From a virus, in IMG/VR virus record IMGVR_UViG_3300027736_000029, positions 32,001-96,000 of that record: a DNA stretch of 64,000 nucleotides, one strand, 5' to 3'. The notes below the pieces were generated by a model. That model ran no database searches and was not told the DNA's origin. It saw only the letters and a program-made list of their open reading frames with translations. Shown one piece after another: positions 1-61,211 of this stretch (position 1 is the stretch's first letter; each line of letters begins with the position of its first letter). The position numbers and the translations under genes are program-made.

Positions 1-401
1 TTGTCGTTTTTAACATATACTTTGGACTTTTTAACGTCACCTTGCATTATTTTACCCAACTGAACTTTTCTTCCCTGATATTCAGCTTCGGTTATTAAAT
101 CGCCGATAATAAAATTGGTTTCTTCTACCGAACCATATTCATCTTCATATAAAGTTTCATTTTTGGGTGCAATACCCTTTTTCTTCATATTGATTGCAAT
201 TGCAGCTTGTTGAGCAGGGCTTGAAGCTTCGTTTGTTTCCACATCTTCAGATTCATTCTTAACACAATTTGGATATCTTTTTCCAAACATTGTTTTCATT
301 CCTTTTTTCTTATAACCACTCCAACATTTTTCTGTTAGTTGTTGTTTTGAATCACCCTCAATTATGATTTTTAATTGTTGTTCGGTTATTATTATTTCCA
401 T
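1..401 (-). CDS. Partial (runs off window) putative virion/head-associated protein
   Basis: Not in ORF track. Open frame from ATG 401: MEIIITEQQLKIIIEG...KCWSGYKKKGMKTMFGKRYPNCVK...; TATTTATT motif 3 nt upstream. Confidence 0.75.
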   Translation of the reverse strand, partial: MEIIITEQQLKIIIEGDSKQQLTEKCWSGYKKKGMKTMFGKRYPNCVKNESEDVETNEASSPAQQAAIAINMKKKGIAPKNETLYEDEYGSVEETNFIIGDLITEAEYQGRKVQLGKIMQGDVKKSKVYVKND

Positions 402-418
402 AATAATAAATATCCTGT

Positions 419-454
419 AAAACAAAAAACCCCGAACAATTTCTTGTCGGGGTT
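419..454 (-). terminator. Intrinsic terminator ending the tRNA/ncRNA unit
   Basis: Stem aaccccga (428-435)/tcggggtt (447-454) followed by a U-rich tract on the minus strand. Confidence 0.85.
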
Positions 455-457
455 CTT

Positions 458-1296
458 GGCTTCAGGTTGAGAATACACCTTCTTACGAGAGACTTTACAG
501 GAGATTATTGTTTACTCCGATTTCCACTTCCTTTTGAGAAGTACCTCTCAGTCACGGTCAATTAGATTAACCAATCCTTAAGTCGTAATCTACTCTGTTT
601 TTACTCGTTGCTCTTCAAGGTTGCCACCCTGATTATGTCTTGCGGACTTAGAGAACTTTCACAACAATCGTATTGGGCTTGGGACCCTTTACGGCCATGA
701 ACATCTCATGACTATGTAGTGACCTGTCAATCACGACTGGCGAACGCTTTTCCTTGTATCTTTTAGTTGTTAAACATCAATTAACAAAGTTTGCGGTTGT
801 GGATGATGAAAGTAGCGGTTCGCCGACCAAGCCATGTCATCTTTTGAACGACACGATACTTAACTACTCCCTAAGATATCCCTATCTTCATACTTCAAGT
901 TTGTTTCATCTTAAATCCCTTGGTAGAGACTTTAAGAAGGAATCACCAGCACCACCTGTACGACCTCTTACCTTTCGGTTTTAAACCCACTTTAATATTG
1001 AATCACGCAATAGTATGGTCGGATAACCATGTGTCTTACAATAATTCTACGAGTTATTCTTATTGGTGTTCCCACCTCAACCAAACGACCCACATCGCTT
1101 GGTCATTAAACCAGTTTCCCTACAGTGTCACCCTCGGTACTCAAGGTCTAACGATATCTCGCTTGTCTACTCGAGCTCCCTTTCGGAAGCCGCAAACCAC
1201 TTAACCAAATGATTCACTTTATACCACTTTCATGGTTTATTTTATGGACTATAGACCGCCCAATATCTTTAATTCAAAGAACGTTTTCTTAATTGT
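458..1296 (-). ncRNA. Large (~800 nt) structured ncRNA, GOLLD-like candidate
   Basis: No credible ORF; visibly more G+C-rich than flanks; own promoter and terminator; GNRA-capped hairpins (1175-1190, 970-979, 873-888); long-range inverted repeats (789-796/1190-1197, 739-745/818-824); directly downstream of a tRNA. Confidence 0.75.
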
Positions 1297-1300
1297 TTCA

Positions 1301-1332
1301 CAAAGGTAAGATAAAGTTTTCAATTTACCAAA
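1301..1332 (-). promoter_or_regulatory. Bacteroidota sigmaA promoter for the ncRNA, with boxA-like GTTCTTTGA downstream (1274-1282)
   Basis: TTTG-N20-TACCTTTG, an exact match to the -33/-7 consensus. Confidence 0.85.
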
Positions 1333-1355
1333 CTTTTTGTGAAGTTTTTTTTTTG

Positions 1356-1428
1356 TTGCGAGAGAGGGAATCGAACCCCCGACCTCAAGGTTATGAGCCT
1401 TGCGAGCTACCGCTGCTACCATCTCGCG
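1356..1428 (-). tRNA. tRNA-Met(CAT), initiator (fMet) type; CCA not encoded
   Basis: CGCGAGA...CAAGG-CTCATAA-CCTTG...GGGGG-TTCGATT-CCCTC-TCTCGCAA; C1:A72 mismatch is an initiator hallmark. Confidence 0.95.
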
Positions 1429-1467
1429 ATATATCTTAAGTAAAAGAACTTTCAAAGTAATGTCCCA

Positions 1468-1576
1468 CAAAGATAAAACTATTTTTTGAAATAATCAAAT
1501 GTCTGTGGGACATTTTTTTTGAGACTCTCATCTCAATTGTTTCACAAAGTTAAAACAAAATTCTCATTTTGTCAAA
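1468..1576 (-). promoter_or_regulatory. Two tandem Bacteroidota sigmaA promoters upstream of the tRNA
   Basis: TTTG-N20-TATCTTTG (1468-1499) and TTTG-N20-TAACTTTG (1545-1576); boxA-like AGTTCTTTTA at 1441-1450. Confidence 0.8.
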
Positions 1577-1738
1577 TATATATTATGAAACTTTTTTTGG
1601 GGATGTCCGTCATTTCTGACTGAAACAATAAATATACCCAACAATTTCAAAAGTACTATATTTTTATGGATAAGTCAAATTTTTTCTATAAAAAAGTTTA
1701 AATTGACATATCTTCCACTATTATTTGTATTTATATGT

Positions 1739-2086
1739 ATGAAAGTTAGAATCAACGACAATATTTTTAATGTAAAAACTTTAATAGATAAGAAATCTCA
1801 ATCTATTGGGATGATGGGTAAAACATTTGGAGCTACGTTCGAAGGTCTATTATTTTTAATGGGTGGAGACAAACAATCTTTTTGGATGAAGAATTGTATT
1901 ATACCATTAGATATTCTCATCATTAGAAATAATGTCATTGTAAACATACATTATAATTGTCCTCCTTGTAACGGTAATGAATGTCCAAGTTATGGTGGAA
2001 ATGGAAATATTGTATTGGAAGTTGAAGGTGGAAGTTGTGAATACTTGGAGATTGAACCAGGTGATACAGTTGAATACTTACTTTGA
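1739..2086 (+). CDS. DUF192 family protein
   Basis: GLLF..SFWMKNCIIPLDILII..VLEV.GG motifs; start reassigned to the ATG 3 nt after TATTTATA. Confidence 0.85.
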   Translation: MKVRINDNIFNVKTLIDKKSQSIGMMGKTFGATFEGLLFLMGGDKQSFWMKNCIIPLDILIIRNNVIVNIHYNCPPCNGNECPSYGGNGNIVLEVEGGSCEYLEIEPGDTVEYLL

Positions 2087-3475
2087 TTCTGCGATTTTTT
2101 CTTTAAGTTTTCTTTCAAACTCATTTGCAATCATCTTTGTAAACTTAACTGAAGGTGAATCATCACTTTCAGAGTCATATCTATTTTGAGATTGAGGTGG
2201 TCTTTTACTTCTACCCAAATAATTTAAACCAGAAATGTTTGTAATACATTTGTGTCCACCTGAATTTGATTGAATTAAATCCCATGCATTGATTCCAATT
2301 TTATCTAACATATTTCTATGTTCTTCAGTTAAATCTTTGAATGGTGTTTCCATCATATCTTGAATATGGTCCAAAACTTTTTCACCACCTTCTATAGTGG
2401 TAAACTTATCACCATATAATGCTTCAAAGTCTTTAAATGTGAATCCAATACTTTCAGGACCCACAGAAGTTTCACTAACCCACTTAATAGTTGATAGAGG
2501 AATTGTTCTTTGTTTTAGTTGGTCTTCCCATTTACTTATAACTTCTTGAGCGATTTCACCTAAGTTAACACCTTTTAATTCTCTTTCTTTTTTGAATGGA
2601 TTACAAGATGCTTGAACCAATCCCATTGGCCATGCCATAATTAAAAAGTCCGCTTCAGGATTGTTTCTAAATGGTGTGTATCTATCATAAGAACCAGGTT
2701 TAAACATATTACCACCACCATATTGAAAAATGATACTATCACTAACTCTTGGATAGTTCTTCATATTTTGTTTATAATCTTCAGCGTTTTTCTGTAGTTC
2801 TTCAGGTTTAGCTGCGTTTGTTTTTTTCATCCAATCTTTAATACTATTTAAAATAGACATTAAAGATGGTTCTGAATCCATAACTAACGATTCTAAAAAC
2901 CCTGGTTTATTTTTAAACGCCAACAATAACTTATTAATAACCAAACCTAACAACATTTTATTCTTTTGAAGTGGTTTGTCTTTATCTAATCGATAAATGT
3001 AATTAACCACCTCATCAGGTGTAATGTCATATTTAGCATAATCTGCAGAATCAACAGTATTGATTAATAAGATGTCTGATGATGGAAACAAATCTCTTGG
3101 TGATACTACTTGTGATATTGTTTCTACGTTTGAACGAGCACCTCTGAATTGTTTTGAAGTACCTTTTTCAACTCCCACTTGTTTGTCGTGGTGGTCCGTA
3201 TGAATTACGAACATTGGCTTACCGTGAGCAAAATCTACAAGAACTGGCATCACATCTCCCTGTGCGTCGTTCTTTTTAACTGAGAATTCTTTGTCACCGT
3301 ATTGGATTATGTGAGTACCTACAACTTCAATACCATTATTTTCAAGGTATCTTTTCATTGCAATTGCAGTTGTTACTCCATCCAAATCTTGGTGAAAGTA
3401 TATTTCAGCTTTAGGATATCTTTTTCTTAAAGCTGAAATATCTCTTATTCCAGTTTCTTTAATTAACATTTTCAT
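2078..3475 (-). CDS. DHH-family phosphoesterase
   Basis: HQDLDG, VLVDF, TDHH and C-terminal GGH (DHHA1-like) motifs. Confidence 0.75.
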   Translation of the reverse strand: MKMLIKETGIRDISALRKRYPKAEIYFHQDLDGVTTAIAMKRYLENNGIEVVGTHIIQYGDKEFSVKKNDAQGDVMPVLVDFAHGKPMFVIHTDHHDKQVGVEKGTSKQFRGARSNVETISQVVSPRDLFPSSDILLINTVDSADYAKYDITPDEVVNYIYRLDKDKPLQKNKMLLGLVINKLLLAFKNKPGFLESLVMDSEPSLMSILNSIKDWMKKTNAAKPEELQKNAEDYKQNMKNYPRVSDSIIFQYGGGNMFKPGSYDRYTPFRNNPEADFLIMAWPMGLVQASCNPFKKERELKGVNLGEIAQEVISKWEDQLKQRTIPLSTIKWVSETSVGPESIGFTFKDFEALYGDKFTTIEGGEKVLDHIQDMMETPFKDLTEEHRNMLDKIGINAWDLIQSNSGGHKCITNISGLNYLGRSKRPPQSQNRYDSESDDSPSVKFTKMIANEFERKLKEKIAESK

Positions 3476-45283: not shown

Positions 45284-45712
45284 ATGGGTAGTATAAAAAA
45301 CGTACAATTTGGTGAAAATGTTTTTGTTGTTGAACCAACAAACCTTTATGGTTGTAAGATTGGTAACAATGTTAAGATTGGTCCATTTGTTGAAATTCAA
45401 CGAGATTCAGAAATTGGGAATGATTCTATTATTAGTTCACACTCTTTCATACCTTCAGGTGTTAAAATAGGTAACAATGTTTTTATCGGTCACGGAGTTA
45501 TGTTTACCAATGACACATTTGACTCAGATTTAATAGAAAATTGGGAAATGAAAAAAACAATTATTGGTGACCGCGTTAGAATTGGTTCCAACTCAACAAT
45601 TTTACCAGTCAAGATTGGTAATAACGTAATAATAGGTGCGGGTTCAGTCGTTACAAAAGACATACCTGATAATGTAACAGTTTATGGAAATCCGGCAAGA
45701 ATTAAATCATAA
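45284..45712 (+). CDS. Hexapeptide-repeat sugar N-acyltransferase (WbpD/FdtC-like)
   Basis: Left-handed beta-helix repeats, FTND, GAGSVVTKD..GNPAR. Confidence 0.9.
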   Translation: MGSIKNVQFGENVFVVEPTNLYGCKIGNNVKIGPFVEIQRDSEIGNDSIISSHSFIPSGVKIGNNVFIGHGVMFTNDTFDSDLIENWEMKKTIIGDRVRIGSNSTILPVKIGNNVIIGAGSVVTKDIPDNVTVYGNPARIKS

Positions 45713-46526
45713 AATTTGCCTAATTGGATATGGTTATTGGGGTAAAATACTCCATAAAAATTTATTATCATTAGGGTATAATGATATCACAATTGTTGAT
45801 GTTGTTTTAGACAACTTCAATCTATTGGATGATAGTTATTCACATTATTTTGTTGTAACACCATTTACAACACACCACGAAATATTATTGAAATTATCTG
45901 AATTTAAGAACAAAAGAATTTGGTGTGAAAAACCTTTGGTTAACACATATAAAGAATCAACCGAAATATATTCATTAATGGAACAAAATAACAATATGTT
46001 ATTTGTTGATTGGGTTTATACGTTCAATCCATGTGTTGATAAAATCAGAAAAATTGTGTCTAAGAAAAAAATTAAACAAGTCATTCTTAACAGAACCAAT
46101 GACGGTCCAAAAAGATTTGACACAAGTTCAATCCACGATTTATCATCACATGATTTATCCATTTTATATCACATATTTGGTAGAACAAATTTTGATTTTA
46201 CTTGGAATGAATTTTCAGTTAAATCAAATGAAGACTTTGGTTCCAATATTAGTTGGTATTATAAAAGTGGATTGCAAGTTATAATTAATTCATCTTGGCA
46301 ACATAAAACAAAAAACAGGGTATCATTATTCATTACTGAAGATGATGAAGTTATCGTTTTTGATGATGTAAAAAAAGTAATCATTACTAATAATGGTGTT
46401 GAAGATTTTTCAGACTCTCCATCCCCAATCCATATTGGTATGAGACACTTCTTCAGTGACAATAATTTTGATTCAAATAAAGAAATAACACTTAAAATAA
46501 CAAAAAACTTAGAACATGCAATTTAA
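45684..46526 (+). CDS. Gfo/Idh/MocA oxidoreductase (sugar 3-dehydrogenase-like)
   Basis: IGYGYWG, CEKP and DL.SHD motifs. Confidence 0.88.
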   Translation: MEIRQELNHKICLIGYGYWGKILHKNLLSLGYNDITIVDVVLDNFNLLDDSYSHYFVVTPFTTHHEILLKLSEFKNKRIWCEKPLVNTYKESTEIYSLMEQNNNMLFVDWVYTFNPCVDKIRKIVSKKKIKQVILNRTNDGPKRFDTSSIHDLSSHDLSILYHIFGRTNFDFTWNEFSVKSNEDFGSNISWYYKSGLQVIINSSWQHKTKNRVSLFITEDDEVIVFDDVKKVIITNNGVEDFSDSPSPIHIGMRHFFSDNNFDSNKEITLKITKNLEHAI

Positions 46527-47625
46527 CGATTTAGGAAAACAATGGGAAACAATTAGAGAAGTTGTTTTAGAAAAAATAGATAAACTTGGTTATCAAGGTT
46601 CATATATTAACGGACCTGCGGTTTCAGAATTTGAATCTGAATTTGCCCAACATTATAACACAAAATACGCTGTTGGTGTGTCAAATGGTACTGATGGTTT
46701 AAAATTGGCTCTTCAAATGTTTGATTTAACCAATACTGATTTAGTTATTATACCATCAAACACATTTGTTGCCGATTACTTGGCAGTTAAACATTTACCA
46801 CTCACAGAACCTTTTGTAGCACTTATTGACCATGACGAACATTTCACGATTGATACAAATCATTTAGAGTTGTTTTTAAAAAATCGTAGAGATAATTTTA
46901 ATAAAGTGGTTGTAATACCTGTTCACTTATATGGTCACTCATGTGATATGGATACCATTATGAGATTATCAAAGGAATATAATTTTCACGTCATTGAGGA
47001 TTGTTCTCAATCACATGAAACAAAATACAAAAACAATTATTTGGGTTCATATGGTGATTTGGCAGTTTATTCATTATATCCAGGTAAGAATCTTGGCGCT
47101 TGTGGTGACGCTGGTATTATTACAACTAACAATGAAGATTTTTATAATAGATTAAAGTCAATTAGAAACTATGGTTCAAAAGTAAAATATCATTATGATG
47201 AGATTGGTTATAATAATAGATTGGATTCAATGCAAGCAATTGTATTATCTGAGAAATTAAAACACCTTAAAGAGTGGACTGATATTAAAAATAAAATTAC
47301 AGAACGTTATCATAATGAAATTAACAACCCAAAAGTTGTTTTACCAAAAGTATCTGAAGATTGTACAACACATTCATATCATATTTTTTGCGTTGAGGTT
47401 GATGACCGTAAGTCATTTGAAAAACATATGTCTGATAATAGTATTACTACAATTATTCACTATCCAATTCCAATTCATCAAACATCAATTTTTGATAGTG
47501 AAGATATTGTATTTTCAAGTTCAAAAACAGATGAGACATGTAATAGAATAGTATCAATTCCAATTCATCCATTTTTGACAATTGACGAAGTAAATCATAT
47601 TATTAACACAATTAACAATTATTAA
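46516..47625 (+). CDS. DegT/DnrJ/EryC1/StrS sugar aminotransferase
   Basis: SNGT, PVHLYG, IEDCSQ, S.YPGKNLG..GD.G motifs. Confidence 0.95.
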   Translation: MQFNDLGKQWETIREVVLEKIDKLGYQGSYINGPAVSEFESEFAQHYNTKYAVGVSNGTDGLKLALQMFDLTNTDLVIIPSNTFVADYLAVKHLPLTEPFVALIDHDEHFTIDTNHLELFLKNRRDNFNKVVVIPVHLYGHSCDMDTIMRLSKEYNFHVIEDCSQSHETKYKNNYLGSYGDLAVYSLYPGKNLGACGDAGIITTNNEDFYNRLKSIRNYGSKVKYHYDEIGYNNRLDSMQAIVLSEKLKHLKEWTDIKNKITERYHNEINNPKVVLPKVSEDCTTHSYHIFCVEVDDRKSFEKHMSDNSITTIIHYPIPIHQTSIFDSEDIVFSSSKTDETCNRIVSIPIHPFLTIDEVNHIINTINNY

Positions 47626-47627
47626 CC

Positions 47628-48344
47628 ATGAAAATTAAAATAGTTCACCTTTTAATAAATCCTGAACATCAAAAAGATGTATCAGATGAGAGATGGCAAT
47701 CAATCTTAAATAAACAAAAACAATCCATTGATTGTTTTGAAAAATTAAAGTGTAAATTTGATTCTTATACTCAACAATATTCCATTATTAATAGAGAAGA
47801 ATTACCTTGGAATACTTGTTGGGAAAACGCAATTATTAATGAGACTTGTGAAGGTAATGACTCGTATTGTTTATCTTATGGTCATTACGGTGCATACATG
47901 GCACATAAACGAGCAATAACCCAAGAATTTTCAAATGATTTAGATGCATTAATTATTTTAGAGGGTGATGTAATAACGGAATTAAACCCTGATGATTTTT
48001 TTAATACAATTAAAAAAGGATATGAATTGGGTGTTGAACGTGGTTCAAAAATTTGTTCTTTTTCAGGAAATATTGTTTGGTTATCAGGAAATGATGATTA
48101 TTGGGATAAAGTGATTGATTTGGGAGATTTTTACGATGTACCACATTTCTTATTAGGCTCAATGTATATGATATATAAATCAGAAAGAAATAATATAATT
48201 AATAATCTCCAAACACATTATTGGCATTCTCCAGATGTTTGGTTGGCTTGGGTTTATGCCAATAGAGGTGGATTATTATCACATAAAGAAATGATTGGTA
48301 AACAAGTTTCAGGTTATTCAGCATTGAATAATACAATGAAATAA
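47628..48344 (+). CDS. Putative GT-A glycosyltransferase (GT25-like)
   Basis: LS.GHYG.Y.AH..A...IILEGD pattern. Confidence 0.6.
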   Translation: MKIKIVHLLINPEHQKDVSDERWQSILNKQKQSIDCFEKLKCKFDSYTQQYSIINREELPWNTCWENAIINETCEGNDSYCLSYGHYGAYMAHKRAITQEFSNDLDALIILEGDVITELNPDDFFNTIKKGYELGVERGSKICSFSGNIVWLSGNDDYWDKVIDLGDFYDVPHFLLGSMYMIYKSERNNIINNLQTHYWHSPDVWLAWVYANRGGLLSHKEMIGKQVSGYSALNNTMK

Positions 48345-48359
48345 CTTATAATTCACATT

Positions 48360-49367
48360 ATGCGTAAATACTGGCACACAACAAACAAATATCTTTGGGA
48401 TGCAAACATACTTGACGTAGGAGATTCAATCTTTTACGATTTAAGTGACTGCCCATCAATTGGTGATACTTTATGTTCAACACCTACCATTAAAAAAGTA
48501 AGTGAGGCTTATAATTGTAAAGTTAATATAATTTCACAACACCCTGAAATTTTTAAAAATAATCCATATATAGATAAAAATTACCCATCGGGTGGTATGA
48601 ATATGGACTATATTAGAGAAAATTTCATAGTACACAATTCGTTTTACGATATTGGTAAACAAAATGATAAAGGAATCCAACATAAACACGCACATACCGA
48701 TATTCGTCAGTATCATGCAATGTTGTTAGGATTTCAATTGTTTCCTGAAGAAATGGAATGTATCTATAACCCAGATGAATTTACACCAATTGAAGGATTA
48801 CCTGAAAAATATGTTTTGATACACCCAGTTCAGAACTGGCCAAGTAGGACTTGGGACTCATATCAATGGGTTAAATTAACTGAAGAATTAAATAAATCGG
48901 GTATTTCTGTTGTTTCAATAGGTAAAGATTCAAGTGAGGTTGGTTTTTGGAATATTGATAAACCAGTATTTAATTTTCATATAGAAAATGGTTTAAATTT
49001 AATGAATGAAACCAATTTATCACAAGCTTGGCATTTAATTCAAAATTCAATTGCGTTTGTTACAATGGATTCGGGTCTTTTACACTTAGCAGGTACAACC
49101 GATGCTCATATTATACAATTAGGTTCATCAATTAATCCTCGTTGGAGGGCACCATATAGACACAATTCTCAAGAATACAAATACCACTATGTTGGTGGTG
49201 GATGTTCAATATTTTGCGCTTCAGATATGAAGTACGGTGTTGAAGAGTGGGGAAGTGTTCAAGGAGTACCACCTTTAATTAATTGTTTGGAGAAAAAACC
49301 TACATTTGAATGTCACCCACAATACGATTCAGTATTTAATAAAATTATGGAAATATATGAAGAATAA
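48360..49367 (+). CDS. GT9-like glycosyltransferase with C-terminal Cys cluster
   Basis: IGD, W..R.W, DSGLLHLA, C..C...C...FEC. Confidence 0.8.
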   Translation: MRKYWHTTNKYLWDANILDVGDSIFYDLSDCPSIGDTLCSTPTIKKVSEAYNCKVNIISQHPEIFKNNPYIDKNYPSGGMNMDYIRENFIVHNSFYDIGKQNDKGIQHKHAHTDIRQYHAMLLGFQLFPEEMECIYNPDEFTPIEGLPEKYVLIHPVQNWPSRTWDSYQWVKLTEELNKSGISVVSIGKDSSEVGFWNIDKPVFNFHIENGLNLMNETNLSQAWHLIQNSIAFVTMDSGLLHLAGTTDAHIIQLGSSINPRWRAPYRHNSQEYKYHYVGGGCSIFCASDMKYGVEEWGSVQGVPPLINCLEKKPTFECHPQYDSVFNKIMEIYEE

Positions 49368-50553
49368 TATTGAATTAAAAATTAACTACCTTGATGGTTG
49401 TATGGTTGAAATTGTTGGTGAAAAAGGTGTTCAGTATAATGAATCAGAAACATATGAAGTATTGTTTATTAATAATCAAACAGGTAAACTATTACATCAC
49501 GCAAATTTGAAACCTAATTATTGGACCAAACCAAGTATTCAGTATTTTGTTGAGTGGAAAATTGTAGTATTAAAAAACAATGTAGGTGTTATTCATGAAG
49601 AAATTATTAACCTACGAGACAAAGAAGTCTTAATTACTATTCAAAACACCCCTCTTGGTGATAACATTGCTTGGGTGGCATATGCAAATGAATTTGCAAA
49701 AAAACATAATTGTAAAGTGACATTACAATTTAGTTTGAAGGATTTATTTGAGGACACATATCCTAACATTAATATGGTTGATTTTGGAAATTATCAAATG
49801 GATGATGAAAAATTTTATGCCAGTTACAGAATGGTATATGGTAAAACACCTGAGGAACAATCTATATTACTTAATGAATTATATAAAAAAAAGAAAAAGT
49901 ATTTAGAAGGTTTAACGTTATGGAATACCGATTCATCCCCAAAACATCCTAATTTAGTACCACTACAAGAATTTGGAGCAACACAAATTGGTTTAGAATA
50001 CAAAGAAATAAAACCTTTAATTCAAAATATTTCAGACGAAAGACCAATTAAAAACAAATACATTTGTATTTCTGAATTTGCGTCAGGTCCAATAAAAGAA
50101 TGGAATAATCCTGTTGGCTGGGAAAAATTGATTCAAATGTTAAAGTCATATGGATATGAGATTGTTTCCATATCAAAAGAAAAATCAAACCTAAAAGGTA
50201 TCACTAAATTAAATGGTGACTTACCTTTATCTAACAGAGCATGGTACTTAAAACACTGTGATTTTTTTATTGGTATGAGTTCTGGTTTAGCTTGGTTAGC
50301 ATGGGCTTGTAACACCAAAGTTGTTATGATATCAGGAGTAACAATTAAAGAAAACGAATTTAGTCAAGATTGTGTTAGAATTTATAATGATAATGTTTGT
50401 CATGGTTGTTGGAATTCACCAAAACATTGTGATAAATTTGTAACATTTTTAAAAGATTTTTGTCCTGAAAATAAAAGATTTGAATGTACTAGAACCATAT
50501 CACCTACTATGGTTATGAATAAAATACTTGAAAATAATTTAATAAAAAACTAA
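49357..50553 (+). CDS. TibC/Aah-type (BAHT) protein O-glycosyltransferase
   Basis: N-terminal beta domain, LGDNIAW, WNN..GW, FIG.SSGL.WLAWA, CHGCWN..CP...FECTR. Confidence 0.85.
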   Translation: MKNNIELKINYLDGCMVEIVGEKGVQYNESETYEVLFINNQTGKLLHHANLKPNYWTKPSIQYFVEWKIVVLKNNVGVIHEEIINLRDKEVLITIQNTPLGDNIAWVAYANEFAKKHNCKVTLQFSLKDLFEDTYPNINMVDFGNYQMDDEKFYASYRMVYGKTPEEQSILLNELYKKKKKYLEGLTLWNTDSSPKHPNLVPLQEFGATQIGLEYKEIKPLIQNISDERPIKNKYICISEFASGPIKEWNNPVGWEKLIQMLKSYGYEIVSISKEKSNLKGITKLNGDLPLSNRAWYLKHCDFFIGMSSGLAWLAWACNTKVVMISGVTIKENEFSQDCVRIYNDNVCHGCWNSPKHCDKFVTFLKDFCPENKRFECTRTISPTMVMNKILENNLIKN

Positions 50554-50554
50554 A

Positions 50555-51202
50555 ATGAAAGATTTCTCTAATATACCCATTAACATAAATTTTATTGGTG
50601 GAGCATTTGTTGATATTCAAGATTTATCCTCTGAAAAATATTTAATTGAATATTATGAAAACACAGGACATGGATGGTCATTGGTCTCGTATAATGTAAT
50701 ACACTGTTATACTTGGTTCAAATACGTTGCAAAACAATTTAGAGTTAATTGGAAGATTAAAATATATGGTTGGTACGATAATAAAGTGGTTCAAGTAAGT
50801 GAACACACTTACAATGAAACCGATGAAAATGTTTTATTGCGACTTAAAACAGATTCTTATGAAGAATGTTTAGAGTGGTTTAATTTATCTGTTCAATTTA
50901 AGAAAAATACTGGTTGTAATTTACACATATATTCAAAATTTAATGACAGATTAAAATTACATAACAAATTACCTGAGATTATTTTTGAAGATATTGAACC
51001 TGCGGTATCTAACTTTCCAACAAAATATTATGCAGATTACGCAATTGATAGACACCATTTATTACATTTATCTTATGGTGAATGGGGTTCAGGTTGGGTC
51101 TTGTATCAAAACCACACGGAACCAAATGTGTCGTATAATCACAGAAATGATTGGTTAAAAATGACATCTAAACAATTATTTAACGACATTATGAATTTAT
51201 GA
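50555..51202 (+). CDS. Truncated BAHT-like protein (N-terminal part, no catalytic LGD)
   Basis: ININFI.GAFV.I...F..NWKIK, similar to the BAHT N-domains at 49357 and within 61212-63314. Confidence 0.55.
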   Translation: MKDFSNIPININFIGGAFVDIQDLSSEKYLIEYYENTGHGWSLVSYNVIHCYTWFKYVAKQFRVNWKIKIYGWYDNKVVQVSEHTYNETDENVLLRLKTDSYEECLEWFNLSVQFKKNTGCNLHIYSKFNDRLKLHNKLPEIIFEDIEPAVSNFPTKYYADYAIDRHHLLHLSYGEWGSGWVLYQNHTEPNVSYNHRNDWLKMTSKQLFNDIMNL

Positions 51203-52785
51203 GTAAAATTATAGGAATACACTATGGAGGACACGATTCCTCAGTAGCATACATAGAAGATGGTAAAATCATTTGTGCCATGGAAGAAGAAAAATTAACT
51301 GGTAGTAAAGCTCTCAATCATTTTTGGCAAAGACCAAACATGGGTTTAGATTTTTTAAGAGACAATTTTAATGTAACAATTAACAATGTTGACCATGTTG
51401 TTTTTGCTCTCCCCCGACATATGGGTATCGAACATGACTTTATGGGTGTTGAACATAAATTTGATAGTTTTTCACATCAAAAATGTCACGCATTAGGTGC
51501 ATATTTCACATCAGGTTTCAAAGGAAAAGTAATTGCAATGAGTCATGATGGTCAAGGACACAGAAGTAGAGGTAAAATCTACTTGTGTGACTCAGGTAGT
51601 TGTGAACAAGTACATACACTTCCAACATCATTAACAATGTCTATTGCTGGTGTTTGGGGTAAAGTAACCCAACTATTAGGTTGGAAGATGTTTAAGGATG
51701 AAGGTAAAATTGTTGGTATGGTTTCTCATGGTCAATTTGACCAAGAAATATATGATTATTTATCACAATGTTTAAAATATGAAGGTAATTTAATGATTGG
51801 ACCAAAAAATGGTCACCCAATGTTTGATTTTATTTTTGAACATAACTTAAATAAAAATGGTTATTTTGATTCAGTTGAAAAACGTAATAATTTAGCTTTT
51901 ACTTTAGAAGTATTATCGGAACAAATAATGTATCAATTTTTGAAGGACTTGAAAGACAAGTACCCTGATTATAATAAAATAACATTTGCTGGTGGTATTT
52001 TTGCAAATGTTAAATTAAACCAATTTATAAATAACACATCATTATTTGATGAAATCTTTATTCACCCATCAATGGGTGATGGTGGTTTGGCGTTGGGTGC
52101 CGCAATATGTAAATCTAATGAGTTAGGTGAATTACCAACACCAGTAAAATTAGACAATGTATTTTTTGGCTCAAAGTTTAGTAAAGAATATTGGGATAAT
52201 GAACTTTTATCACATGAAAACACTTTAACAACAGAACCTGTTTCTTTTGAAAAAATTGCTTCATTAATAAATGATGGTAAAATACTTGGAGTCTTTGTTG
52301 GTAAAACAGAGTATGGTCCAAGAGCTTTAGGTAATCGTAGTATTATTTGTAGACCAACAGATAAAGACACTCACACATTATTGAATACAAGACTTAAAAG
52401 AACTGAAATTATGCCATTTGCACCAAGTGTGTTGGAAGAACATTTTTTTGACGTGTTTTCAAATGACAAATCAAAGTATGCTGCAGAATTTATGACATTA
52501 TGTTATAACACTAAAGATTCTTGGATTGAGATGATTCCAGCGGTTATACATCAAAAAGATGGGACAGCAAGACCTCAAAGTGTAAATAAAATAACAAACC
52601 CACACTTTCATAATATAATTTCCGAGTATTATAAATTATCAGGAATACCATTAGTCTTAAACACATCTTTTAATTCACATGGTGAACCAATTAACAATTA
52701 TCCACACCAAGTATTAAAACATCTTTTGGACAATTCTATTGACTACATTATCACTGAAGATTATATTATTAGTAAAATAATATGA
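51199..52785 (+). CDS. NodU/CmcH-family carbamoyltransferase
   Basis: HDSS, EGK..G, AGG..ANVKLN, GD.G.A.G, EYGPRALGNRS, PFAP, DGTAR.Q, LNTSFN.HGEP. Confidence 0.95.
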   Translation: MSKIIGIHYGGHDSSVAYIEDGKIICAMEEEKLTGSKALNHFWQRPNMGLDFLRDNFNVTINNVDHVVFALPRHMGIEHDFMGVEHKFDSFSHQKCHALGAYFTSGFKGKVIAMSHDGQGHRSRGKIYLCDSGSCEQVHTLPTSLTMSIAGVWGKVTQLLGWKMFKDEGKIVGMVSHGQFDQEIYDYLSQCLKYEGNLMIGPKNGHPMFDFIFEHNLNKNGYFDSVEKRNNLAFTLEVLSEQIMYQFLKDLKDKYPDYNKITFAGGIFANVKLNQFINNTSLFDEIFIHPSMGDGGLALGAAICKSNELGELPTPVKLDNVFFGSKFSKEYWDNELLSHENTLTTEPVSFEKIASLINDGKILGVFVGKTEYGPRALGNRSIICRPTDKDTHTLLNTRLKRTEIMPFAPSVLEEHFFDVFSNDKSKYAAEFMTLCYNTKDSWIEMIPAVIHQKDGTARPQSVNKITNPHFHNIISEYYKLSGIPLVLNTSFNSHGEPINNYPHQVLKHLLDNSIDYIITEDYIISKII

Positions 52786-53363
52786 GCGTATTTAATATAT
52801 TTGCGTACGAAGATGAACCATTTGCAGGTGATGTAATTACTGAGTATGAGTTCATTAAACTAAAACATAAATTTGATGTTAAAAATGTTGTTGAGACAGG
52901 TAGTTATGTTTTTAGTACAACAAAATGGTTTGGTGAAAATTTTCAAACAGTATATACCTATGAAACTAATGAACATTTTTATAATGTCGGTATTGAAAAG
53001 ACTAAAGATTTTAATAATGTAAATTCATTTTTAGAAAACAGTTTAATTGGTCTACCAAATTTACAAGGTAAATTATCAGACCCAACAATTTTCTTCTTAG
53101 ATGCGCATTGGGGTGATTATTGTCCTTTATTAGATGAATTAGATATTATTTCAACATTAAACACAACACCAATTATTGTAATTCATGATTTCAAAACAAA
53201 TAATCCTGAATTAGGATATGATTCATATAATGGAAATGATTTTTGTTTTGATTGGATTGAAAATCATATAAAAAAAATATACCCAAATGGTTTTGATTAT
53301 TACTACAACACTGAGGCCGTTGGAGCTAAAAGAGGTTTAATTTATATCACACCAAAAATATAA
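52782..53363 (+). CDS. Class I SAM-dependent methyltransferase
   Basis: VETG, FFLDAH...PL..EL, IHD motifs. Confidence 0.75.
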   Translation: MSVFNIFAYEDEPFAGDVITEYEFIKLKHKFDVKNVVETGSYVFSTTKWFGENFQTVYTYETNEHFYNVGIEKTKDFNNVNSFLENSLIGLPNLQGKLSDPTIFFLDAHWGDYCPLLDELDIISTLNTTPIIVIHDFKTNNPELGYDSYNGNDFCFDWIENHIKKIYPNGFDYYYNTEAVGAKRGLIYITPKI

Positions 53364-53366
53364 TAC

Positions 53367-55310
53367 ATGAAAAAACTTTTAATTATTGCACCGCATTTGT
53401 CAACAGGAGGATGTCCTCAGGTTATTGTCAATAAAATTGAACTATTAAAAGACACATATCAAATAAAGTGTGTTGAATATTCAAACATTGCAGAAGTATT
53501 TAGAATTCAAAAAGATAGAATTATAAATTTAATTGGTCTTGATAATTTAGTTATTTTATCACAAAATAAAGAAGAAGTCTTGATGAATTTAATTGATGAG
53601 TTTCAACCAGATTTTATTTCTTTAGAAGAAGTACCTGAGTATTTTTTAGATGAAAAAATAACAAAAAGAATTTATTCAAATGATAGAAAATATATCATTA
53701 CTGAAACCACTCATGATTCTAGTTTTCCTGTTGAACGTAAAAGATGGTTTCCTGACAAATTTATTTTTGTAAGTGCATTTAGTGCTTTCAAATACTCAGG
53801 TTTTGATATCCCATATGAAATTGTTGAATATCCAGTTGATTTTAAATTACCAAGAAAAACTGAAATGCAAACCAAACTTAATTTTGACCCATCATATAAA
53901 CATGTGGTTAATGTAGGTTTATTTACACAAAGAAAAAACCAAGCTTATATCTTTGAATTGGCAAAAAGATTATTGGACTACAAAATTGTTTTTCACTTTT
54001 TGGGTAATTTGGCCGGAAACTTTCAAAGTTATTGGGAACCATTAATACAAAACAAACCTAATAACTGTATGGTTTGGGGTGAAAGAAATGATGTTTACGA
54101 TTTTTTAGAAGCGTCTGATTTATTTCTTTTTACATCAAAAGGTGATAAAAACAATAAAGAATTAAACCCAATAGCAATTAAAGAAGCATTAGAATATCAA
54201 ATACCAATGATGATGCACAATTTAGATGTATATTGTGGTAAATACGATGAATATAAAAATATCACTTATTTAACTGGTGATATTGAAACCGACATAACTA
54301 ACTTAAAAAAAATATTAAATATGAACACAATACAAGAAAAATTCTCCCTGTCTTTTGACGAAAATGAAAATAAAATTTATGTTAATTACAATGATAATGA
54401 ACCTGTAAATTATAAAGTATCAATTAAAGATATGACATCTAAATGTCCTATGTATTGGTTTAACTTTCAAGCAACCAATTCGGTAACATGGTATGTAGTA
54501 CCAATACCAACACATGTTGTTAAATTTAAACGATTATCGTCATTTAGAGGATTTGATGTTGATTTTTATAATGAAGATAACCAATTAGTTTTTTCTAAAG
54601 AATATGTTGTTAACGATATTGAACTACGTTATCCAATTTTTAATTATGATGGTTTTGATTGTAGTTGGAGAAACTATAATGAATTTTTTGTTGATGATAT
54701 TTATCGTAATTTTAATATAAATAATTTAGACACTGTAATTGACATTGGAGCTAATATTGGGTTATTCGCTAAATACATGTATTCTAAAGATGCTCGCAAA
54801 GTTGTTTTGGTTGAGGCTAACCCAAACTTAGAAAATAATATTAAAAATATGTTAGATAATGATTATAGTCGTTCATCTGTATATCTTTCACCAATTTTTT
54901 CAGAGAAAAAAACCGTAACATTTAATTATTCGGATAATAATTCAGCAATTGGTTCAATTGCTTTTGATTCAACAAAAGGTGTTGATTATGAATCTTTAAC
55001 TAATTCAATAGAACTTGAAACAATAACTTTAGACGAAATTATTGAAAAAGAAGGTATTGAACGAATTTCATTGTTAAAATGTGATATTGAAGGTGGTGAG
55101 TATGATTTAATTCCTTCTCTTACAGACAAACAAATGTCAATGATTGATAAATTTATGATTGAAATACATTCAAATACTGATAACCAAATACAACCTATAT
55201 TAGATAAGTTAGAATCTCATGGTTTTAATTATAAAATTTATTCACCAACGTTAAATTCAATGGAGTTAGGTGATAAAACAACAGAGTATGGGATGTTAGT
55301 TACGTATTAA
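53367..55310 (+). CDS. GT4-type glycosyltransferase fused to FkbM methyltransferase
   Basis: PHLSTGG, VG..T.RKNQ, E..P...KEA; C-terminal IDIGANIG, LKCDIEGGE. Confidence 0.88.
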   Translation: MKKLLIIAPHLSTGGCPQVIVNKIELLKDTYQIKCVEYSNIAEVFRIQKDRIINLIGLDNLVILSQNKEEVLMNLIDEFQPDFISLEEVPEYFLDEKITKRIYSNDRKYIITETTHDSSFPVERKRWFPDKFIFVSAFSAFKYSGFDIPYEIVEYPVDFKLPRKTEMQTKLNFDPSYKHVVNVGLFTQRKNQAYIFELAKRLLDYKIVFHFLGNLAGNFQSYWEPLIQNKPNNCMVWGERNDVYDFLEASDLFLFTSKGDKNNKELNPIAIKEALEYQIPMMMHNLDVYCGKYDEYKNITYLTGDIETDITNLKKILNMNTIQEKFSLSFDENENKIYVNYNDNEPVNYKVSIKDMTSKCPMYWFNFQATNSVTWYVVPIPTHVVKFKRLSSFRGFDVDFYNEDNQLVFSKEYVVNDIELRYPIFNYDGFDCSWRNYNEFFVDDIYRNFNINNLDTVIDIGANIGLFAKYMYSKDARKVVLVEANPNLENNIKNMLDNDYSRSSVYLSPIFSEKKTVTFNYSDNNSAIGSIAFDSTKGVDYESLTNSIELETITLDEIIEKEGIERISLLKCDIEGGEYDLIPSLTDKQMSMIDKFMIEIHSNTDNQIQPILDKLESHGFNYKIYSPTLNSMELGDKTTEYGMLVTY

Positions 55311-55328
55311 AATGAAAAATATAATTGT

Positions 55329-56360
55329 ATGTCAATTGATAGTGAAAAAACTTGCGTATTAATTGGTGCTCATCCTCAGAATTCAAATGATAGTGCTTTA
55401 CTATCATTAACAATTGAAGGTATTAAAAGACAAGGTTATAAAATATGTTTAGTATCTCATTCACCCGTTAATGTCGATATACAAAAATCCGTTAATTATT
55501 ATGTTTATTCAGATGAAAATGAAATTTTAACATTACCATCGTACTCAGATTCTGTAATTTTCTCAAGTTATCCTAATTATTATTACCAATCTAATTTAGG
55601 TAATAGATTAGGTACCACACATTACGCTTCGTTAATTAACTTAAAAAACGGATTAAATTTACTTAAAGAAAAAGGTTTTACACATTTCATATACCACAAT
55701 TACGATTATTTTATAAATCAAAAAGACCATACAGTATTAGAAACACACTTAAAAGATTTAACAAACTTAGACTATTGGTTTATGAATGATGCTCATGACC
55801 GTAATGGTTTATTTCCAGTTTTATCAATTTTTGCTGGCAAAATATCTTATTTTATTGAGTTATTTAGTGTTGCCAATTCTCCTGAAAATTATTTAAAATA
55901 TTGTGGTAATAATTATATTTTAGAATTTTTTGTAAGACAACGAATAAAAGACTGCGGTGGTTTTGGTATCATTGAAAAATTTAGAGCTTCAGATATTTTT
56001 ACAAGTAAGTGGGCCGGTATTGCAGACACTAAAGGATTACACCTACCAGATTATGATGTTGTAAACGCATATGTTGATTTAGTGAGAGATTATGATAATG
56101 AAAACCACATTTACGGTATTTTACCAATGTGTAATTCATCACATAATGTTGTTATTAATTTATATAAAAATGATGTGAAAATATTGTCAAACACCTTAAA
56201 ATTAGGTAGTATGTATTGGTGGTGGTATAAAACAACCGATAATGACAAATGGAAAATTGAATGTTATTTATCTGAAAGAATAATTAGTTCAGTTGAAAAA
56301 CTTGGTAGTGAAATATTATCAAATAAACCATCATTTTTAAAATTTAAGAAAAGTGAATAA
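55329..56360 (+). CDS. Putative GT-A-like protein, paralogue 1
   Basis: Family pattern ending GFTHF..NYD. Confidence 0.5.
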   Translation: MSIDSEKTCVLIGAHPQNSNDSALLSLTIEGIKRQGYKICLVSHSPVNVDIQKSVNYYVYSDENEILTLPSYSDSVIFSSYPNYYYQSNLGNRLGTTHYASLINLKNGLNLLKEKGFTHFIYHNYDYFINQKDHTVLETHLKDLTNLDYWFMNDAHDRNGLFPVLSIFAGKISYFIELFSVANSPENYLKYCGNNYILEFFVRQRIKDCGGFGIIEKFRASDIFTSKWAGIADTKGLHLPDYDVVNAYVDLVRDYDNENHIYGILPMCNSSHNVVINLYKNDVKILSNTLKLGSMYWWWYKTTDNDKWKIECYLSERIISSVEKLGSEILSNKPSFLKFKKSE

Positions 56361-57297
56361 CAGGGTAGTATTAATAAACTCATTCTGTGATAAACAGAAT
56401 AAAATTGATGTTTTAGAAAAAAACATAAAACTAATTAAATCTAATAATTTAGATGTTATATTATTATCACCCATAAATTTACCTGAGTATATTATTGATT
56501 TATGTAATGTTTTTATTCAGACAAAAGAAAATCCTGTTACAAAATGGCCAGGAAAAACAATGTTTGAATATTGGGCTTATTGTATGGATAATAAATTTTA
56601 CGAACTTCATTTAGGTAAATCAGATTATGGATGGGCGTCATTATACCAAATTAAAAAATTAAGTCAAATTGGGTTAACATATGATTATGAATATTATTTT
56701 CACATAATTTATGATACAGTAATTGACGAACATTTAATTGACACATTCTTAACTAACGAAAAATGTATATTATTCCCAAGTAATAAAGGTTTTGAAGTTG
56801 GTGGTTTTTTTATGGGTTTTAATAAAAATGTATTAAGTTTATTTCAAGAAATAATAACTAAGGATTTATATTATAAAAACTATGATGTTGCCGAAACTTT
56901 ACTATCTAACATATCAAAAGTCTTACCTTGTAAAATTGAAAAGTATGATACTAAGGATGAAATATATTTTTTTGAAAACTTAGATTTATTTAATTATTCT
57001 ATTTATGTTGATTTTAAGTTTTTCTTACATAAAAGAACATTGGCCGATGATGATACTGCTAAAATATTTTTTTACGATTTAAATGGTTCTTATGATGTAA
57101 CTGTTGAGGTAAATAACATTACTATTGATACGGTTATTAGTAATCATTATTTAATGGACCTAAATCTTCATCATGATGATGTATTTAGTTTATCAATAAC
57201 ATATAATGGTAATACACACAACTTAATCCATCTGTATAATAACATATCTCATAATAAAATTATAATAACTGATGTTGATGATTGTAATAATCTTTAA
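56353..57297 (+). CDS. Putative GT-A-like protein, paralogue 2
   Basis: Same N-terminal pattern; YG.AS...Y.Y.F..IYD. Confidence 0.5.
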   Translation: MNNRVVLINSFCDKQNKIDVLEKNIKLIKSNNLDVILLSPINLPEYIIDLCNVFIQTKENPVTKWPGKTMFEYWAYCMDNKFYELHLGKSDYGWASLYQIKKLSQIGLTYDYEYYFHIIYDTVIDEHLIDTFLTNEKCILFPSNKGFEVGGFFMGFNKNVLSLFQEIITKDLYYKNYDVAETLLSNISKVLPCKIEKYDTKDEIYFFENLDLFNYSIYVDFKFFLHKRTLADDDTAKIFFYDLNGSYDVTVEVNNITIDTVISNHYLMDLNLHHDDVFSLSITYNGNTHNLIHLYNNISHNKIIITDVDDCNNL

Positions 57298-57326
57298 TTT
57301 AATCAATTGTTTGTTATTATTTATTT

Positions 57327-58025
57327 ATGGATTTTAATTACTACTGCAACCAAAATAACACAGATAAAGGAGATTTATCACCACTTGGTAATCGATACGC
57401 CAATTTTTATGAAAATTGGTTTTCAAAACTAAAAAACTCAGCAACTAATATTTGTGAAATCGGTATTGATTCTGGAGGTTCTCTAAAGTCTTATTATGAT
57501 TATTTTCAAAACGCTCAAATTTTTGGATTAGATATAAATGACAAATCATTATACAATAATGATAGAATTAAGACATTTATTTTAGACCAAAGTAAATCTC
57601 AAGATTTAGATAGTTTTGTTAATTATTGTAAATCTAATAACATCCAATTTGACTTTATATTAGATGATGGTTCACATGATGTTGAACACCAACAATTAAC
57701 TTTTGGTAAATTATTTGAATTAGTTAAACCAAACGGTTTTTATATCATTGAAGATTTGGGTAGTAGTTACTTCACATTAGGTAATAATCTTTATGGTTAT
57801 ATTCAAACTCAAACTAAAATTAACAATAACACGATTAAATTTTTAAATCAAAGACCATTTAGTAGTCTTTGGATTTCAGAAGAAAACTTAATACAAATCA
57901 ATAACTTAGTAGATTCTGTAACCATATTTGATACATATAACAAAGATTTACCATATACTACTGATTTTACATGTGAAAATAATTACCCTATTAGGTCAAT
58001 TACTTCAGTTATTAAGAAAAAATAA
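57327..58025 (+). CDS. Sugar O-methyltransferase-like class I SAM MTase
   Basis: TDK, EIGI..GGSL, GLDI, DQS, DDGSH, YIIEDL motifs. Confidence 0.85.
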   Translation: MDFNYYCNQNNTDKGDLSPLGNRYANFYENWFSKLKNSATNICEIGIDSGGSLKSYYDYFQNAQIFGLDINDKSLYNNDRIKTFILDQSKSQDLDSFVNYCKSNNIQFDFILDDGSHDVEHQQLTFGKLFELVKPNGFYIIEDLGSSYFTLGNNLYGYIQTQTKINNNTIKFLNQRPFSSLWISEENLIQINNLVDSVTIFDTYNKDLPYTTDFTCENNYPIRSITSVIKKK

Positions 58026-58027
58026 TT

Positions 58028-59044
58028 ATGAAACTTTTAACCATATTAGATTGTTACATCCATAACAACACAATACTCAATAAATTAGATTCGTTTATTG
58101 ACAAATTAAAATCAAAAAATTCTGATATTTTATTAATTTCAAATACAACTATTCCAATAGAAATTCAACAAAAAGTAGATTATTGTTTATACGATTCCAA
58201 TAATCATTTTTTTTCAAGTGATTGGGAATTTTCTGAATTGTTTGTAGTTAAGACTTTAATATCTGGCGGTAATTGTCAAGATGTTTTTCCAAAATTACAA
58301 CCACATGGTTTATCTGTGATGATTAATATTTTTAACGCAATTACTATTGGTAAAAGTTTAGGTTATACCCATTTTGAAAAATTAGAATATGACCCATTAT
58401 TCTCTGACGAGTCATTTAACAATTTATCTTTATTACCTTCAAGATGTTTAGATGAAAATAAAAAAGGTTTGTACTTACTAAATAATATAACAAACCCTCC
58501 TGATGTATCCTTTCATTATTTTTTCTCTGAAATTGATTATTTTTTATCAAATGTTAAAAACATAAAATATGAAAATGATTATCGTGATTTTATTAATCAA
58601 ACAAATGGTAATAATTTCTTCATCAATGTTGAAAGATTTTTATATCAAAATTTAGAAATTTCTGGTTTAGAAAATTTTGTATTAATTAACGAAGAAGAAC
58701 GAGATTTGAAATTTCCAAACACGTATTGGAATTCTGAAGTTTCACCAAATAACATACCTAAAAAATATAATAGCTGTACATCTCGTTTGTATTTGCCAAT
58801 GGATACAAATGAGTATGTCGTATTATTATCAATGAATTATGATAATAAACATAAAGAAAGAATTATTAAATGTTATTTTGATGATGGTTTTATTTACACA
58901 TCAACACATCATATAACCAGTAAAGGTAGTTATACTTATGACAGTATAACCCCCAACATTCAGTTTATTGAAGTATTTGAGAATGGTGAGTTACTTTATA
59001 CTGAACATATCTCAGAAGTTAATAATCTAATACAAATTAGTTAA
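58028..59044 (+). CDS. Putative GT-A-like protein, paralogue 3
   Basis: HGLSV.IN...LGYTHF..LEYD. Confidence 0.5.
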   Translation: MKLLTILDCYIHNNTILNKLDSFIDKLKSKNSDILLISNTTIPIEIQQKVDYCLYDSNNHFFSSDWEFSELFVVKTLISGGNCQDVFPKLQPHGLSVMINIFNAITIGKSLGYTHFEKLEYDPLFSDESFNNLSLLPSRCLDENKKGLYLLNNITNPPDVSFHYFFSEIDYFLSNVKNIKYENDYRDFINQTNGNNFFINVERFLYQNLEISGLENFVLINEEERDLKFPNTYWNSEVSPNNIPKKYNSCTSRLYLPMDTNEYVVLLSMNYDNKHKERIIKCYFDDGFIYTSTHHITSKGSYTYDSITPNIQFIEVFENGELLYTEHISEVNNLIQIS

Positions 59045-59046
59045 AT

Positions 59047-60177
59047 ATGAAATTCACATTTGTTACATCATTTTATAAAACAGAGAATTATATTAAAGAA
59101 TTATATGATTCAATAAAATCACAAACCTATACCAATTGGGAATGGATTGTAACTGACGATTTTTCTGATGATAATACAAAACAAATTTTGTTAGACATTT
59201 GTTCTAATGATAAAAAAGTTAGATATATAGAACAATCCAAGAAAAAAGAAATGTTTTACAATCCACAATGGTTTTGTAAAGAATCTGAAATTATTGTTGA
59301 ACTTGGAAGTGATGATGTTATATCCCCCAAAGCTCTTGAGGTATATCTATATTATTTCACCAAATTCCCTGAAGTTATTATGATATCTTGTAGGTCCAAT
59401 TCTTTTTTGGACGATGGTAGTTGGAATAACTTTGAGGTTCGTAATTTCAAGAATTGTAAAAATCTATTGTGTGGGAATATCTTATATCTTAAAGCATGGA
59501 GAAATAAGATTACCGATGTTGATTACAACCCTGGTGATTGGATGGAGTTCTTCTATAATGATTTGGTATTCAATGCTCATTTAGAAGAGGAAGGTAAAGT
59601 ATTAATCTTACCAAGAGCTTTATACAAATACAGGTATAGACCTGAATCCATCAGCAGAAAATTATACACAATGGAAAACTTGGACAAGATGATGGATGAG
59701 AATAGAAACATTGTTTCAATGGTTAATGAACGTAGAGGTAACGAGATTGAAACGATTGACAGGTATTTTGAGGACATTGTTGATTTATCATTACCATTTA
59801 TGGATATGGAATTTTCCATGATTGATACTCAGAAAAGGATTGGGTATTTTACAACGTCAATTAACGATAAAAAATTTGGTTTAATTAAGGAGTTATTATT
59901 TGACCAAGACGTACATTTAAACAAATTTGACCGTGAGTATGATTGGGGATTTTATTATATTAAAACCATGACCGATGTTGTTCTTATGACGAATACAATA
60001 TCCAAAATTTTTGAATTAAACCCAAACTGCAATGTTAGAATTGCCGTGGACAATATTGAAAACACTGAATTAAGAGAAAAACTTTATAATGAAATTTCTG
60101 ATTTTTTATTACAAAAGTATTATTATTTCACTAACTGTTTTGAATTCTGTCTTTTTACAGTAGGAATACCATCATGA
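59047..60177 (+). CDS. GT2 glycosyltransferase
   Basis: S...QTY.NWEWIVTDDFS.D, SDD, LY.YR motifs. Confidence 0.9.
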   Translation: MKFTFVTSFYKTENYIKELYDSIKSQTYTNWEWIVTDDFSDDNTKQILLDICSNDKKVRYIEQSKKKEMFYNPQWFCKESEIIVELGSDDVISPKALEVYLYYFTKFPEVIMISCRSNSFLDDGSWNNFEVRNFKNCKNLLCGNILYLKAWRNKITDVDYNPGDWMEFFYNDLVFNAHLEEEGKVLILPRALYKYRYRPESISRKLYTMENLDKMMDENRNIVSMVNERRGNEIETIDRYFEDIVDLSLPFMDMEFSMIDTQKRIGYFTTSINDKKFGLIKELLFDQDVHLNKFDREYDWGFYYIKTMTDVVLMTNTISKIFELNPNCNVRIAVDNIENTELREKLYNEISDFLLQKYYYFTNCFEFCLFTVGIPS

Positions 60178-61205: not shown

Positions 61206-61211
61206 TAAATT

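Follow-up and report, generated by a model that had tools for sequence, protein, structure and literature searches.

A full-length GOLLD RNA gene of the env-38 type beside an initiator-type tRNA-Met gene in a freshwater phage

The window analysed here, a stretch of 64,000 nucleotides corresponding to bases 32001-96000 of an IMG/VR virus record 104 kb in length, carries near its start a segment of about 800 nt in which the minus strand contains no ORF of at least 50 aa (positions 464-1263) and the GC content is 0.415, as against 0.311 across the window. This locus raises the question of which RNA, if any, is encoded there and what that RNA would do for the phage. An earlier reading of the letters (the sequence-only reading) had described the segment as non-coding and GC-enriched, both of which hold, and had taken it to be either a Bacteroidota-phage variant of the GOLLD RNA or a new class of large RNA. 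GOLLD was reportedly first described by Weinberg et al. in 2009. One member of the family, env-38, has been resolved by cryo-EM as a homo-14-mer nanocage (Kretsch et al. 2025, PMC12286853). The features of the locus and of its surroundings are listed in Table 1.

Table 1. Positions of the GOLLD gene, its parts, and neighbouring features (window coordinates unless stated otherwise).
Feature	Position	Strand	Evidence or remark
Phage smpB	L001:374-847, 190-663 bases before window start	-	PF01668 151.6 bits, NF003843 150.5 bits
Next gene, ORF of ~190 aa (start part in window)	1..401	-	ORF list
Intrinsic terminator, CCCCGAC/GTTCGGGG stem then T6	424..452	-	-12.2 kcal/mol
GOLLD 3' domain ('ring' domain)	464..871	-	RF02032 match, 324.1 bits
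Pseudoknot, 738-729 with 590-581	581..738	-	[[[ ]]] pairing of the Rfam consensus
Two adjoining hairpins, loops CGCAA (644-640) and UGGCAA (626-621)	615..647	-	self-complementary GC in each
Variable A/U-rich linker	749..813	-	poorly conserved and length-variable in the alignment of relatives
GOLLD 5' domain ('cap' domain in env-38), ~21 helices	872..1263	-	collinear with env-38
ACC-GAAA-GGT hairpin, loop 976-973	970..979	-	GAAA loop in 53 of 54 sequences
Bacteroidota-type promoter, TTTG-N20-TACCTTTG (TTTG-N20-TAccTTTG)	1301..1332	-	exact consensus match
tRNA-Met(CAT), initiator type	1355..1428	-	ARAGORN; Rfam tRNA, 51.3 bits
Leader and promoter cluster upstream of the tRNA	1429..1679	-	three more TTTG-N20-TAnnTTTG sites
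DUF192 protein	1703-2086	+	conserved upstream neighbour of GOLLD
465-aa DHH-like protein	2078-3475	-	DHH match 20.9 bits, below the Pfam cut-off of 28.1
639-aa phage protein	L214:5449-7368, genome 20948-22867	-	C-terminal T9SS type A sorting domain

Identity of the RNA gene

A cmscan search against Rfam 15 matched positions 871..464 of the minus strand to GOLLD (RF02032; E = 1.5e-93). The match covered model positions 1-416 of 416 without truncation, and its score over the whole 3'-domain model was more than twice the gathering score of 150 bits. Only one other Rfam match in the 64-kb window was above threshold, a tRNA at 1428..1356 on the same strand. Among the further families that the sequence-only reading had proposed to screen, ROOL (RF03087) gave no match at the gathering score in the window, nor at E ≤ 1 in positions 1-2000, and the OLE, tmRNA, RNase P RNA, and group I/II intron models gave none, even at E ≤ 1 in positions 1-2000. 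ROOL resembles GOLLD in being a large, ornate, tRNA-linked RNA of phages and prophages that forms an RNA-only nanocage (an 8-mer), whereas its sequence and secondary structure are unrelated to those of the window RNA. The setting is that of a phage RNA, with the gene located in an IMG/VR virus record among phage-type genes and adjoining a tRNA-Met gene.

The RF02032 model represents only the universally conserved 3' domain of GOLLD, and the 5' half therefore needed a separate test. When the whole stretch was compared with GenBank phages by blastn, the only matches were to the 5' half in LR756502 (642 kb) and LR745206 (635 kb), two of the huge phages of Al-Shayeb et al. 2020 (PMC7162821), at ~68-77% identity. 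Both genomes encode a full-length GOLLD (275 and 287 bits, respectively) with the same 5'-domain type, situated among tRNAs; unlike the window copy, they have one additional hairpin, inserted where the 5' domain ends. These two GOLLD genes, located at ~434.2-435.1 kb of LR756502 and ~420.4-421.3 kb of LR745206, are unannotated. The alignment of the window with these genomes contained two invariant blocks, GAGCTCGAGTA and CAGGTGGTGCTG, separated by ~205 nt, and this two-block 5'-domain pattern retrieved 113 IMG/VR loci, 89 of which were full-length relatives with identities to the window from 99.9% down to ~68%.

The 5' end of the env-38 construct, the sequence of which was taken from the supplement of PMC12286853, aligned collinearly from window position 1263 on, with stem changes that preserve pairing, indicating that the window has the env-38 type of 5' domain and not a variant one. 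The 5' half aligned block by block both with env-38 and with the 113 other GOLLD loci, and the 5' domain measures 392 nt within a GOLLD core of 800 nt. We have very little doubt that window positions 1263..464 (-) constitute a full-length env-38-type GOLLD gene, in identity as well as in fold. Of the alternatives offered by the sequence-only reading, GOLLD was borne out, whereas neither the variant nor the new class was: the copy is of the standard env-38 type, with neither a variant architecture nor the status of a separate RNA class. A strong GOLLD match, as that reading had foreseen, confirms the feature and at the same time lowers its novelty.

Fold, covariation, and predicted cage assembly

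Covariation across homologues had been named in advance as a check on the feature, and it was found in most of the predicted pairs. The relatives were reduced to 54 sequences less than 95% identical to one another, and a consensus was computed with RNAalifold, yielding ~38 helices, nearly all with compensatory double changes. In total, 222 pairs were predicted, with 94-97% of their cells canonical, and 151 showed compensatory changes, a pair being counted when the change was seen in at least two sequences. The 5' domain accounted for 116 pairs (96.5% canonical cells and 75 compensatory pairs) and the 3' domain for 106 (94.5% and 76, respectively). In controls in which the 3' partner was slid by 1-3 columns, 35-47% of cells were canonical and 17-28 pairs were counted (17-25 in the 5' domain), while column shuffles produced a maximum of 48 compensatory pairs in the 5' domain and 55 in the 3' domain.

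All the motifs quoted in the sequence-only reading were located on the minus strand, and six of its seven helices carry compensatory changes among the 54 sequences. Four of the six are local hairpins, namely GCTTCC-GAAA-GGGAGC (1190-1173), ACC-GAAA-GGT (979-970), AAGATA-GGGA-TATCTT (888-873), and GGTTAAT-CTA-ATTGACC (572-556). The fifth, GGCGAAC/GTTCGCC (824-818/745-739), is part of the covarying helix 824-814/748-739 that closes the variable linker; it is 99% canonical, and all seven pairs are present in 52 of the 54 sequences. The sixth, AGTCGT/ACGACT (738-733/586-581), is the known pseudoknot, the 10 pairs of which are 97-100% canonical, nine of them with compensatory changes. The seventh, a helix spanning ~400 nt between GTTTGCGG (1197-1190) and CCGCAAAC (796-789), was rejected as a chance match: only 49% of its cells are canonical, and only three of the 54 sequences, the window and two close relatives, are able to form it. 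The bases of the GTTTGCGG arm are instead part of a local hairpin that covaries (1217-1209/1200-1192), and the CCGCAAAC arm falls within the variable linker.

Several loops of the window RNA have probable counterparts in env-38, although the mapping of residues is approximate because the env-38 sequence, obtained by OCR, is short of ~17 letters. Judging from its position in the alignment, the loop of the ACC-GAAA-GGT hairpin is probably L11a, which is the sole conserved loop without a contact in env-38 (PMC12286853). The two adjoining hairpins at 615..647 probably correspond to the symmetric kissing loops L21a, for which a GC/CG switch is reported, and L21b, which is conserved (PMC12286853); among the relatives, the loop at 644-640 switches between CGCAA (36) and GUCGA (12), and the loop at 626-621 retains its GC. 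The GGGA loop is kept in 51 of the 54 sequences. By homology with env-38, in which linker 497-538 is disordered (PMC12286853), the variable linker of the window RNA would be a disordered loop inside the cage.

The same homology suggests how the RNA would assemble. It would fold into two domains and, like env-38, self-assemble without protein into a closed D7 homo-14-mer nanocage, in which the 5' domains would form the caps and the 3' domains the rings, with the variable linker facing the interior. The window copy and env-38 have the same two-domain architecture, with an 800-nt core in the former and an 830-nt construct in the latter. They also have in common the 5'-domain type, the 3' domain with its pseudoknot, the variable linker, the conserved GAAA loop, the GC-bearing kissing loops (predicted in the window copy), an aquatic phage origin, and a site just downstream of tRNA-Met. 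On the other hand, their 5' ends are homologous yet diverged, with many aligned columns differing, and several hairpins are shorter in the window copy (e.g., CUUCC-GAAA-GGGAG versus a longer stem in env-38). The window copy further differs in its Bacteroidota-type promoter, its freshwater phage, and the nearby smpB gene.

Transcription signals and probable abundance in lakes

The sequence-only reading had placed the RNA between a perfect host promoter and a terminator, and both were recovered. The promoter consists of a -33 TTTG at 1332-1329, a 20-nt spacer, and a -7 box, TACCTTTG, at 1308-1301, and the first conserved helix lies ~30 nt further downstream. From it, transcription is predicted to start near 1295-1292, giving a transcript that would run from ~1294 to ~425, where the terminator lies directly 3' of the last GOLLD hairpin. 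A TAnnTTTG box was present in 16 of the 113 relatives, in 12 of which its distance was the same as in the window. A second candidate promoter from a simple scan, TTGAAT/TATAGT at 1277-1248, was disregarded as it falls inside the conserved RNA.

When the window was scanned with the consensus TTTG-N18-22-TANNTTTG, 12 matches were obtained versus 5.7 expected, so that such sites are commoner than in shuffles, and several copies directly precede ORFs. Four are clustered at 1301-1679: the GOLLD promoter and the three leader sites upstream of the tRNA (1468-1499, 1545-1576, and 1648-1679) lie within 380 nt of one another, all on the minus strand. The motif CTTTGTGAAACAATT is common to the promoters at 1308 and 1552. 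A long hairpin in the leader (~1514-1459, TGTCCCACA.../...TGTGGGACA; -31.6 kcal/mol, z -4.6) encloses the 1468-1499 site.

According to an index of public runs, the stretch is present in six metatranscriptomic libraries as well as in many DNA runs from lake water. We compared contigs from four lake metatranscriptomes of four studies, which were chosen for containing the stretch. The RNA-library contigs that matched ~531-1255 with zero mismatches had word depths of ~175-2550, while contigs of the flanking protein genes (few or no mismatches) in the same runs had depths of 2-6, and a contig over the tRNA leader had a depth of 63; as depth pools close relatives and the runs had been picked because they contain the stretch, these values are a hint of abundance rather than a measurement. 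The contigs carry neither strand nor transcript ends nor time course, and the parts of the 5-kb region left uncovered in two runs do not constitute evidence of silence. Carry-over of DNA would yield even depth, and the uneven depth was thus read as a good hint of RNA, specifically that the GOLLD RNA is here a discrete and very abundant RNA. This agrees, as a hint, with the claim of the sequence-only reading that the segment is transcribed like a stable RNA. In L. brevis, GOLLD expression rises at phage lysis (PMC12286853). Two contigs run straight into an Illumina adapter, the one at position 1255 and the other at position 531; these are single records that could mark fragment ends.

Gene context, host, and possible function

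The tRNA-Met gene lies 47 nt upstream of the GOLLD promoter and is the sole tRNA on the 104-kb contig. It has a C1:A72 mismatch, A11:U24, and, in the anticodon stem, two of the three G-C pairs (G30-C40 and G31-C39). The C1:A72 mismatch is a mark of bacterial initiator tRNAs. Among the relatives, a same-strand tRNA-Met was found within 300 nt upstream of GOLLD in 22 of 88, and a tRNA adjoined GOLLD on either side at 30 of 79 loci; of the 33 different tRNA-Met genes lying no more than 600 nt from a related GOLLD, 26 carried the C1:A72 mismatch. The env-38 gene has likewise been described as downstream of a Met-tRNA (PMC12286853), and no feature of the genomic context is more consistent within the GOLLD family than linkage to tRNAs (PMC12286853, PMC6582537).

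On the other side, smpB is two genes downstream of GOLLD, with the ~190-aa ORF, unrelated and with no Pfam or NCBIfam family match, between them. An smpB gene was located downstream of GOLLD on the same strand at 12 of 58 loci, which represent four of 39 clusters, and in seven loci, including those of three divergent phages (L015, L088, and L116), it starts only 29-79 nt behind GOLLD. ARAGORN found no tmRNA on the 104-kb contig; with the record being 36% complete (CheckV), this absence says nothing about the phage. Upstream of GOLLD, the DHH-like and DUF192 genes are syntenic in 26 of 41-46 clusters.

A length of 104 kb at that completeness suggests a genome near 300 kb, and GOLLD relatives occur on contigs of up to 483 kb. 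The T9SS type A sorting domain of the 639-aa protein (TIGR04183, 26 bits versus a cut-off of 23) suggests that this protein uses the Bacteroidota secretion system of the host, and a virion-like protein contains an SprB repeat. Together with the promoter type, these two features indicate that the host is probably a member of the Bacteroidota, as the sequence-only reading had also proposed. The phage additionally has a long co-directional block of sugar-modifying genes (45284-63688, +), which includes a Nol-like carbamoyltransferase (51199-52785), glycosyltransferases, an FkbM methyltransferase fusion (53367-55310), and a GT1-GT9 fusion (61212-63314).

As for function, our preferred guess, to which we give well below an even chance and hold only tentatively, is that the cage acts on the translation apparatus. 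The phage would make the cage in quantity during infection, and this container or scaffold would have tRNA, initiator tRNA, or ribosomes as its target. This guess draws on the recurrent adjacency of initiator-type tRNA-Met, on the position of smpB directly behind GOLLD in some lineages, and on the ribosome pull-down cited in PMC12286853. The link to translation is guilt by association, with smpB behind GOLLD in no more than four of 39 clusters, a tRNA next to GOLLD at 30 of 79 loci, and, here, an unrelated ORF standing between GOLLD and smpB. A more specific form, in which GOLLD, the initiator-type tRNA-Met, and SmpB constitute one phage module for the takeover of translation, appears unlikely. 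Such a module would redirect initiation or ribosome rescue towards phage messages, the cage doing so by binding initiator tRNA, ribosomes, or SmpB-bound complexes or by taking them up inside.

At least as likely as the translation guess, and in our estimate an even call, is that the GOLLD cage has a role unrelated to translation; it might, for instance, counter the RNA-sensing defences of the host as a decoy or sponge, or it might hold small molecules or stress proteins. Metabolites and stress proteins are among the possible cargos considered in PMC12286853, the linkages to tRNA and smpB are partial, and the genes kept on the upstream side in 26 of 41-46 clusters encode DHH-family and DUF192 proteins and are not translation genes. 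Set against this are the tRNA linkage, which is the most consistent element of the family context (PMC12286853, PMC6582537), and the lack of any known link here between GOLLD and a gene for defence or anti-defence.

It is much less probable, and indeed very unlikely, that the segment serves the operon formed by the ~190-aa ORF and smpB as a long, structured 5' leader or as a cis-regulatory element, rather than being a stable RNA in its own right. The adjoining genes are on the same strand, smpB follows closely behind GOLLD in some relatives, and one RNA-library contig, spanning positions 1 to 509 with a depth of 19, crosses the terminator; however, this is ~1% of the depth that GOLLD contigs reach in that run. 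Moreover, a strong terminator stands straight after the last hairpin, here and, in the form of terminator-like sites within 80 nt of the GOLLD 3' end, in 57 of 90 relatives (a perfect-stem criterion, which we judged too strict, recovered 4 of 90). In most relatives the downstream neighbours are other genes or tRNAs, and members of the GOLLD family act as free self-assembling RNAs (PMC12286853).

That the segment is a large structured RNA of a new class, resembling GOLLD only in size and context, is scarcely credible: the Rfam model spans only the 3' half, but the match to that 3' model is complete, and the 5' half is alignable to env-38 and the 113 loci. A protein-coding region or degenerate gene can be dismissed, as the plus strand has only two frames overlapping GOLLD, both TTG-started (76 and 94 aa), whereas the substitutions among relatives are paired stem changes rather than codon-wise ones, indels of any length fall in loops, and the minus strand lacks an ORF of at least 50 aa.

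With the class already known (GOLLD in 2009, the cage in 2025), the window copy is in itself no discovery, and its modest value lies in its context. Among large and huge phages of fresh water, GOLLD of the env-38 type is widespread, occurring on contigs of up to 483 kb and in genomes of 635-642 kb. The recurrent adjacency of initiator-type tRNA-Met and smpB points to testable partners, namely initiator tRNA, SmpB, and the ribosome, and GOLLD RNA can be made and assembled in vitro, which suits binding experiments. If the phage module of GOLLD, initiator-type tRNA-Met, and SmpB were true, it would be the first function of GOLLD.
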